Positions 36,382-36,810 of a stretch of 64,000 nt of DNA are shown in pieces (positions within the stretch are counted from its first letter, which is position 1; every line of letters begins with the position of its first letter). The stretch comes from Escherichia coli. Its GTDB lineage: Bacteria > Pseudomonadota > Gammaproteobacteria > Enterobacterales > Enterobacteriaceae. The translations under genes and the position numbers were made by a program. The notes beneath the pieces were generated by a model. That model saw only the letters and a program-made list of their open reading frames with translations, searched no databases and was not told the DNA's origin. The stretch is taken from NCBI RefSeq assembly GCF_003018115.1, contig NZ_CP027457.1. One strand, written 5' to 3'.

Positions 36382-36810
36382 ATGTATTGCCGTGCTGTAC
36401 CGGTTCTTGTTTTGATATTAGCTAGTCTGACAACTGGCTGCACAAAAGATGTATCGACAAATAATTATGATGCTTCTCTGTATCACTCAGATAAATTAAT
36501 AAAGTCGCAAAATTTGAGCTCATCGGAACGTACCCCTGATGCCAGTGAAGAAATCCGGCAGTATGCCATTCAGGTCAGGAAAGCCATAGAAGAACAGTTA
36601 AAGGATGCGAGTAAGTATTCAGGAAAAGAGTGTTCACTGAGAATGTATATGGCCCCGAATGGTCTTCTGCTACAGGTTAAAAGAGAAAGCGGTGATCCCG
36701 ATTTATGTCGTGAAGCGATGAATGCAGTAAAGAATGCTGATATACCATCACCACCGTCTTCAGGAGTATATAAAGTATTTAGAAATGGCGTGCTGGATTT
36801 TAAACTCTGA
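36382..36810 (+). CDS. predicted lipoprotein/secreted protein with TolA C-terminal (domain III)-like domain
   Basis: Signal peptide ending LTTGC; C-terminal ~90 aa (YAIQVRKAIEEQLKDASKYSGKECSLRMYMAPNGLLLQVKRESGDPDLCREAMNAVKNADIPSPPSSGVYKVFRNGVLDFKL) aligns with the TolA C-terminus as recalled; GGAG Shine-Dalgarno. Confidence 0.8.
   Translation: MYCRAVPVLVLILASLTTGCTKDVSTNNYDASLYHSDKLIKSQNLSSSERTPDASEEIRQYAIQVRKAIEEQLKDASKYSGKECSLRMYMAPNGLLLQVKRESGDPDLCREAMNAVKNADIPSPPSSGVYKVFRNGVLDFKL

Follow-up and report, generated by a model that had tools for sequence, protein, structure and literature searches.

A prophage lipoprotein of Escherichia coli with a homologue of TolA domain III: a candidate tolerance decoy in the Shiga-toxin slot

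Signal-sequence fusions that place domain III of the energy transducer TolA (TolA-III) in the periplasm reportedly give tol-like leakiness and tolerance, and the exported domain is also said to confer tolerance to colicins and Ff phage. Cor and Llp, lipoproteins that phages encode to exclude competitors, are among the other described systems that come close to the gene considered here. This gene belongs to a lambdoid prophage in a 64,000-nucleotide (nt) stretch of Escherichia coli DNA (RefSeq assembly GCF_003018115.1, contig NZ_CP027457.1), which is called the window. Its product of 142 amino acids (aa) joins a lipoprotein signal peptide to a C-terminal homologue of TolA-III, and we tentatively propose that it could act as a decoy for colicins and phages that enter through the Tol system.

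TolA-III has been studied mainly through its partners. The TolB N-terminus, colicin N and the N1 domain of the phage protein g3p bind it by strand addition at strand beta3 (PMC4339652; reviewed in PMC7391070), and a single proline substitution at D418 or K420 abolishes all three interactions and produces the full tol phenotype (PMC4339652). The same paper gives affinities of about 1 µM for colicin N and about 40 µM for TolB (PMC4339652). For colicin A the site is the opposite edge, TolA L375-P380, and K368, K379 and K396 make cation-pi contacts with the colicin (PMC3365938). Exported TolA-III makes the outer membrane (OM) leaky, according to PMC6195910, which cites Wan & Baneyx 1998 and Levengood-Freyermuth 1993.

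A predicted lipoprotein ending in TolA domain III

The gene and the parts of its product are as follows; ORF stands for open reading frame, AF2 for AlphaFold2, pLDDT for its predicted local distance difference test score, and dN/dS for the ratio of nonsynonymous to synonymous substitution.

36370..36373, + strand: Shine-Dalgarno sequence GGAG (sequence reading)
36382..36810, + strand: coding sequence of the TolA-domain-III lipoprotein, 142 aa, stop codon included (ORF listing of the window; WP_099528373.1; PHROG 5772)
36382..36441, + strand: predicted lipoprotein signal peptide, aa 1-20, lipobox LTTG-C20 (sequence; conservation of the Cys in relatives)
36442..36540, + strand: disordered tether, aa 21-53 (AF2 pLDDT <50; relaxed dN/dS)
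36541..36807, + strand: TolA domain III homologue, aa 54-142 (homology, AF2, Foldseek, dN/dS)

The identity of the product rests on its C-terminal domain. Residues 54-141 align without a gap with E. coli TolA 333-420 (E 4e-26 to 1e-24; phmmer against all Protein Data Bank (PDB) chains), and the alignment is the same in five structure families (1s62, 3qdp/3qdr, 2x9a, 1tol and the full-length 9k49). Over aa 54-142 and TolA 333-421, 52% of positions are identical (46/89), and both proteins end at the same position. BLASTP against K-12 TolA returns 46/85 identities (54%; E 3e-28) confined to TolA 336-420, with no significant similarity to TolA 1-335, that is, to domains I and II. The N-terminal transmembrane domain I and the Ala/Lys/Glu-rich helical domain II of TolA are both absent, and therefore the protein cannot couple to the proton-driven TolQ-TolR motor. 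Pfam family PF06519 (TolA C-terminal) matches residues 52-140 over model positions 7-96 of 96 (E 1.1e-22).

Structure prediction agrees with these alignments. With a 62-sequence alignment as input, AF2 gives pLDDT values above 94 for residues 54-142 and below 50 for residues 21-50. The predicted elements follow each other as helix, short helix, strand, strand, helix, helix, strand, with helices at 54-70, 76-79, 106-118 and 127-133 and strands at 83-90, 96-104 and 135-141. This is an alpha/beta fold in which helices pack on a sheet of three strands. In a Foldseek search of the PDB, the top five matches are all TolA domain III (3qdr_A, 2x9a_B, 3qdp, 1tol and 1s62). The superposition on 2x9a_B has a root-mean-square deviation of 0.6 Å at 53% identity, and TolA-III structures overall lie at 0.6-2 Å; Vibrio and Pseudomonas TolA-III come next in the ranking, and TonB C-terminal domains far below. 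C84 and C109, which correspond to the TolA disulfide cysteines C363 and C388, are invariant in the 62-sequence alignment. The beta3 strand is kept as well, L138-D139-F140-K141 standing for TolA L417-D418-F419-K420. In that alignment the short-lipoprotein family as a whole ends in the consensus LDFKP, which together with the motifs GK..C..LR and GDP.LC makes up its most conserved features.

By its sequence and predicted fold, the stretch formed by the C-terminal 89 residues is a true homologue of TolA domain III. The earlier note on this DNA had given the TolA sequence correctly and had described a product with a signal peptide whose last ~90 residues match TolA almost position for position; the alignments, the hidden Markov model search and the structure prediction that it proposed as checks all bear this out, and the pairwise similarity to domain III is significant. 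Its term "TolA domain-III mimic" holds as to the domain, but the protein is a diverged homologue and not a convergent look-alike: with clear homology at E about 1e-26, convergence was rejected. Recent capture from the E. coli chromosome was likewise rejected, given 52-54% amino acid identity, a GC content of 41% and the fact that the chromosomal tolA was never matched in blastn searches of 5426 complete E. coli genomes.

The N-terminus of the protein, MYCRAVPVLVLILASLTTG-C, is that of a lipoprotein signal peptide: in MYCRAVPVLVLILASLTTGC, a single basic residue and a hydrophobic core precede a lipobox that ends in Cys20, with Thr next. The lipobox Cys is kept in >90% of the 62 aligned relatives, and the lipoboxes of the other allele and of the paralogue described below read IIIG-C and VAG-C. 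The +2 residue is Thr in the window protein, the other allele and the paralogue, and none has Asp at this position. Under the +2 rule of lipoprotein sorting, Thr at +2 predicts transfer to the outer membrane. The window lipoprotein is predicted to be lipidated and sorted to the OM. Between the lipobox Cys and the domain lie 33 residues for which AF2 predicts no helix. The Shine-Dalgarno sequence lies 8 nt 5' of the ATG, and the NCBI Prokaryotic Genome Annotation Pipeline (PGAP) uses the same start in the identical record NZ_CP027462.1 (E. coli 07-4299).

The sequence family is already catalogued, as PF06519, as PHROG 5772 and under the NCBI name "TolA C-terminal domain-containing protein". PHROG files phrog_5772 under "unknown function", and the window protein has no match in the PADLOC catalogue. 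We found no functional study of the prophage TolA-like family in the full-text literature, a coverage that misses most subscription journals, and TolA goes unmentioned in a 2024 review of superinfection exclusion.

The Shiga-toxin slot and the spread of the gene

The gene resides in a lambdoid prophage integrated beside ompW. The 5' part of this prophage runs from the integrase through early genes, Q, two hypothetical genes, a DNA methylase and two tRNAs to the TolA-III lipoprotein gene, and the 3' part continues with a 3' fragment of the methylase gene, an AraC-type regulator, the nanS-p esterase, holin, lysozyme, Rz, a TonB-family lipoprotein, terminase and late genes. The elements around the gene are listed here.

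35747..35898 and 37278-37429, + strand: direct repeat of 152 nt, 82% identity (DNA methylase 3' end and, as the second copy, what PGAP annotates as a methylase pseudogene fragment)
35942-36017 and 36027-36103, + strand: two phage tRNAs, one with a CAT anticodon (tRNA-Ile in PGAP) and tRNA-Arg TCG (ARAGORN, PGAP)
36125..36887, + strand: cargo cassette of 763 bp, consisting of an upstream region, the TolA-III lipoprotein gene and a hairpin (blastn against LC567842.1)
36222..36251, + strand: candidate sigma-70 promoter TTTGCA-18-TATTAT inside the cassette (promoter scan, at chance level)
36809..36835, + strand: hairpin of 11-12 bp right after the stop codon (centroid -14.7 kcal/mol)
36917..37129, + strand: prophage small RNA (sRNA) of the STnc100 family (Rfam RF02076, 172 bits), with a terminator-like site at 37099-37118

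The same backbone carries Shiga toxin (Stx) in 376 records, mostly Stx-converting phages, as found by phage genome comparison. In the Stx2a phage LC567842.1 the order is Q, methylase, tRNA-Met, tRNA-Arg, tRNA-Arg, stx2A, stx2B and nanS-p. When the two are compared by blastn, window positions 34900-36124 match at 97.7% and positions 36888-37289 at 91%, and the segment between is unrelated. The 763-bp cassette stands in place of tRNA-Arg(argO), stx2A and stx2B of Stx2a phages. Its GC content is about 0.38-0.42, as against 0.52-0.56 in the flanks, and that of the gene itself is 41%; the segment is thus a discrete replacement of deviant composition, as expected of a moron. The earlier note had placed the gene just after the phage tRNAs, and it does begin 278 nt after the second of them; both tRNAs are common to Stx phages. 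The STnc100 sRNA found 3' of the cassette is part of the backbone common to Stx2 phages and lies outside the cassette. Assembly of this region by recombination between related phages is suggested, because the 152-nt direct repeat brackets the module of tRNAs, TolA-lipoprotein gene and sRNA.

The earlier note also credited the gene with its own ribosome-binding site and terminator. The GGAG sequence supports the former. The hairpin after the stop codon has no adjacent U tract, is not called by the terminator scan and has a z of -1.1 against shuffled sequences, and it thus falls short of a canonical intrinsic terminator.

Of 5426 complete E. coli genomes, 896 carry the gene (blastn), or about one in six. 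It is at least 90% identical to the window copy in 122 of them, mostly Shiga-toxigenic strains, and about 80% identical in the other 774. The 80% allele, here type 2 (the window allele being type 1), occurs in Rac-type prophages at ttcA and in phage mEp460_ev081. In type-2 contexts a second, paralogous TolA-III lipoprotein follows (TolA_B, WP_001348108.1, 124 aa, 34% identical to TolA), and then the holin gene directly. This paralogue is absent from the window and is carried by type-2 prophages alone. Copies of it vary from 124 to 131 aa and end in DMRG, versus DFKP. The tandem genes were located in three of our loci from Rac-type prophages and mEp460_ev081.

L003, 9547-9921: tandem second TolA-III lipoprotein
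L002, 8580-8975: tandem second TolA-III lipoprotein
L037, about 5601-5975: tandem second TolA-III lipoprotein

With the window protein as the single query, a scan of IMG/VR viral contigs recovered 61 contigs, and in all of them the gene lies between an antiterminator gene (Q or DUF1133) and the holin gene, on the same strand. Sixty of these copies are intact ORFs of 142 codons, and the last is cut by the end of its contig. The mature protein is the conserved unit: between types 1 and 2, the shared DNA begins at the lipobox Cys codon and ends at the stop codon, and neither the signal peptides nor the two flanks are related. By the Nei-Gojobori method, the domain has a dN/dS of 0.23-0.27 and the tether one of 0.34-0.82; at the level of sequence comparison, the domain is under purifying selection. 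Intact copies are also kept in degraded Rac-type prophages whose integrase and lysozyme genes are broken.

Beyond E. coli, an exhaustive HMMER search yielded 303 clusters, including many proteins of 110-160 aa with a lipobox and TolA-III, for example in Serratia and Scandinavium, and the architecture of lipobox Cys plus TolA-III is conserved across many clusters formed at 50% identity. The contexts of these distant short lipoproteins are mixed: some are chromosomal, one belongs to an element with an integrase, and many come from short contigs. A 123-aa protein of this kind is encoded at 6001-6372 of a contig of GCA_965180495.1 (our locus L012), at the end of an integrase/resolvase element made up mostly of unannotated small ORFs. 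The architecture therefore also occurs on mobile elements outside the lambdoid phages of E. coli.

What the tethered domain may do

The earlier note saw in the gene a candidate exclusion factor, directed at group A colicins and Ff phage, and a role in exclusion or tolerance is plausible. The version that we favour, tentatively and on the strength of the domain's sequence, is a tolerance decoy, in which an OM-tethered TolA-III without a motor acts against group A colicins and filamentous phages. The flexible tether of ~33 residues on this prophage cargo lipoprotein would hold the folded domain in the periplasm, and its exposed beta3 edge strand (LDFK) would bind, by strand addition, the partners of the host TolA tip: g3p through its N1 domain, group A colicins through their TolA-binding epitopes and, with lower strength, TolB through its N-terminus. 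Without a motor there would be no pulling force, and import would stall at the outer membrane. Cells would be expected to tolerate filamentous phages and those colicins that depend on Tol, and Tol-Pal function would be somewhat weakened as a side effect. A TolA tip on the inner face of the OM would also be well placed to catch epitopes as they emerge via porins or by the pilus route. A modest amount of decoy could trap invaders with little disturbance of Tol-Pal, because colicin N binds at about 1 µM and TolB at about 40 µM. In an AF2 model of the domain fused through (GGS)10 to TolB 22-36, TolB residues 22-27 are placed as an added strand with a pLDDT of about 57; this model has no control and is given little weight. 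The edge strand bound by colicin A reads LLQVKR in the window protein, which retains K379 and K396. Selection on the domain, the intact copies, the wide spread and the conserved plan of lipobox Cys plus TolA-III also count in favour of the decoy.

Several observations weigh against a decoy. K368, the partner of the essential Tyr58 of colicin A, is replaced, by Tyr in the window protein and by His or Asn elsewhere among the alleles, which makes colicin A binding less certain. Some lineages have frameshifted copies or copies truncated by insertion sequences (IS). The promoter scan found 2 promoter-like sites where 3.1 are expected by chance, and no promoter or terminator is conserved across type-1 and type-2 contexts, whose upstream regions are unrelated. 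A TolA-III made constitutively could be costly to the cell. Finally, the gene is invariably part of the Q-dependent late operon, close to the lysis genes, and protection from colicins or Ff phage would be of little use at so late a stage. In Stx phages, the stx2AB slot is transcribed chiefly from pR' after induction. The cassette is presumably under the same late-promoter regime, because it shares this slot and the flanking backbone with stx2AB.

A decoy may have company in the same prophage. The earlier note mentioned a TonB-domain lipoprotein at 45033, and a gene of this type is indeed present.

45039..45365, + strand: lipoprotein of 108 aa (lipobox LVMG-C) with a TonB C-terminal domain, just after the lysis cassette (E 3e-16 to the TonB C-terminal-domain structures 8rd6/1u07)

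Residues 24-104 match the TonB C-terminal domain (TIGR01352, 56.5 bits), and the gene occurs in 414 of the 5426 complete E. coli genomes, including O157:H7, O145 and O111. Its family, PHROG 1267, is labelled "Rz-like spanin" (lysis), and this looks like a mislabel. A broader proposal, which we regard as possible although doubtful, is that lambdoid prophages of E. coli maintain a hitherto unrecognised class of OM-tethered decoys, comprising motor-less TolA-III, often in tandem, and the TonB C-terminal domain, which together would confer broad tolerance to Tol- and Ton-dependent killing, one member being allelic with Shiga toxin. These copies of the partner-binding tips of both proton-motive-force transducers would capture, at the outer membrane, the epitopes of TolA- and TonB-box type that colicins and phages present.

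Among the other explanations, an unlikely one is sabotage of the envelope during the lytic phase. The protein would then be made mainly from the late promoter pR', along with holin, endolysin and spanin, and protecting the lysogen would not be its role. OM-tethered TolA-III would sequester the TolB N-terminus and stop the Tol-Pal cycle, and the resulting loose outer membrane, leaky or shedding vesicles, would help the cell to lyse and progeny to escape, or would prevent late superinfection. The invariant same-strand position between Q (or DUF1133) and holin, in 61 of 61 viral contigs and in both prophage types, fits this explanation, as do occupation of a slot that is chiefly pR'-transcribed and the lack of a promoter common to both contexts. 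The outer membrane becomes permeable when TolA-III is exported, and loss of tolA leads to hypervesiculation. The twin lipoprotein with the TonB domain also flanks the lysis cassette, its PHROG being filed under lysis, and a costly inhibitor would be harmless if made only late. However, the prophage already has a full set of holin, endolysin and Rz, so that a further OM destabiliser looks redundant, and the weak affinity of TolA for TolB (about 40 µM) would require high expression. The intact copies in defective Rac-type prophages argue for a benefit outside the lytic cycle. A role in protecting the lysogen is favoured by these copies, by the affinity argument and by the analogy with Cor and Llp.

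That analogy also opens a second route, which we consider distinctly unlikely: the fold might have been re-purposed for another ligand, such as the periplasmic face of the OM receptor used by the phage itself, which it would mask as Cor and Llp mask FhuA. Cor and Llp are small OM exclusion lipoproteins that act from the periplasmic side, edge-strand addition is promiscuous, and the identity to host TolA of 52-54% (34% for TolA_B) leaves room for altered specificity. Nevertheless, the features conserved most strongly are those of genuine TolA domains (GK..C..LR, GDP.LC and LDFKP), no receptor candidate emerged from the data, and the idea is purely analogical.

It is highly improbable that the gene is an inert remnant of a captured fragment of a host gene. 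Its lack of a documented function and the frameshifted or IS-cut copies are what a remnant would lead one to expect. In opposition to this are the dN/dS of about 0.25 for the domain, the 60 of 61 copies that are intact, and the precise addition of a lipoprotein signal peptide, in two unrelated versions joined at the lipobox. Both the tandem paralogue and numerous distant clusters show the same architecture as well.

In all of the listed genomes, PGAP gives the gene the name "tolA, cell envelope integrity protein TolA". It does so because the protein passes the NCBIfam cutoff of TIGR02794 (74.9 bits versus 59.45) on the C-terminal domain alone; PRK09510 scores 103.5 bits, below its cutoff of 213, and both matches cover only the last ~90 model positions. 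That the prophage supplies a functional TolA, as this name and the TIGR02794 score would have it, is practically untenable and already refuted by the sequence, which holds domain III only: the protein has 142 aa versus 421 aa, matches TolA in its last 89 residues alone, starts with a lipoprotein signal peptide, fails PRK09510, and is encoded outside the ybgC-tolQRA-tolB-pal-cpoB cluster, as comparison with the K-12 tol-pal locus demonstrates. The misannotation is systematic, since hundreds of genomes have a 142-aa prophage lipoprotein under the label "tolA, cell envelope integrity protein TolA", and this misleading label can affect pangenome and essential-gene analyses.

Neighbouring elements, significance and known systems

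Other elements of the prophage were noted in passing. The window has five STnc100 copies, all on the + strand (RF02076, 119-172 bits; 36917-37129, 38889-39084, 39148-39357, 39419-39617 and 39679-39868), one directly 3' of the cassette and four in tandem upstream of nanS-p. STnc100 has been tied to the PasD sRNAs of Stx-type prophages in a 2026 preprint. An AraC-family regulator gene (37506-38231, + strand) lies between the cassette and nanS-p. Its product is nearest to YdeO/GadX (NCBIfam, 3e-34, below the cutoff) and resembles the acid-resistance regulators that prophages carry in pathogenic E. coli; the gene occurs in only a subset of type-1 contexts. In the early region of the prophage, by hokD, Rfam matches at gathering level to isrK, C4 antisense RNA and sok antitoxin RNA fall within 28495-29562 (+ strand).

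A coherent hypothesis emerges when the allelism with stx2AB is taken together with the TonB twin and the tandem paralogue. If the lipoprotein is a decoy, about one-sixth of sequenced E. coli would carry a prophage gene that alters sensitivity to group A colicins and filamentous phages, and possibly the robustness of the outer membrane. Carriers include many Shiga-toxigenic strains that are negative for the locus of enterocyte effacement (LEE), and commensals with Rac-type prophages. A decoy would bear on the control of pathogenic E. coli by colicins and phages, on competition in the gut, and on what lambdoid phages without a toxin place in the Shiga-toxin slot. It would also offer a natural, evolved dominant-negative TolA tip, with a TonB counterpart, for probing force transduction.

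The system closest in sequence is E. coli TolA domain III itself (residues 333-421; 1S62, 3QDP/3QDR, 1TOL and 2X9A; PF06519), which the window protein resembles in its gapless homology, C-terminus, predicted fold, disulfide pair and LDFK strand. Unlike TolA, the window protein has its domain alone on a lipoprotein anchor with a short tether, and it has no inner-membrane anchor, no domain II and no link to a motor. Its gene is in a prophage late region at 41% GC and not in the tol-pal operon. Among residues that concern colicin A, K368 is replaced by Y, D377 by Q and P380 by R.

Engineered periplasmic TolA-III is likewise a domain III without a motor in the periplasm, and provides a precedent for dominant-negative or decoy action. 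However, the engineered form is soluble, overexpressed and of host sequence, whereas the prophage version is natural, diverged and predicted to be tethered to the OM.

The TonB-type lipoprotein of the same prophage has the same plan, in which a lipobox is joined by a short tether to a C-terminal domain that, in a transducer of the proton-motive force, binds partners, and it flanks the lysis cassette. It copies TonB and not TolA, it is distributed independently (414 versus 896 E. coli genomes), and its family carries the label "Rz-like spanin".

The stx2AB cassette, in LC567842.1, occupies the same slot, with Q, the methylase and tRNAs upstream and an STnc100-type sRNA and nanS-p downstream. 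It differs in what it delivers, an AB5 toxin and a third tRNA as opposed to a single lipoprotein of 142 aa.

Cor (phi80, N15 and mEp phages) and Llp (T5) are also small phage-encoded OM lipoproteins that block, from the periplasmic side, import by way of a host envelope machine, and they too are accessory genes of lambdoid phages. Their sequences and folds are unrelated to that of the window protein, and they block one receptor, FhuA, whereas the window protein copies a domain of the energy transducer. Copying the tip of the energy transducer itself would be new relative to the known prophage exclusion lipoproteins.

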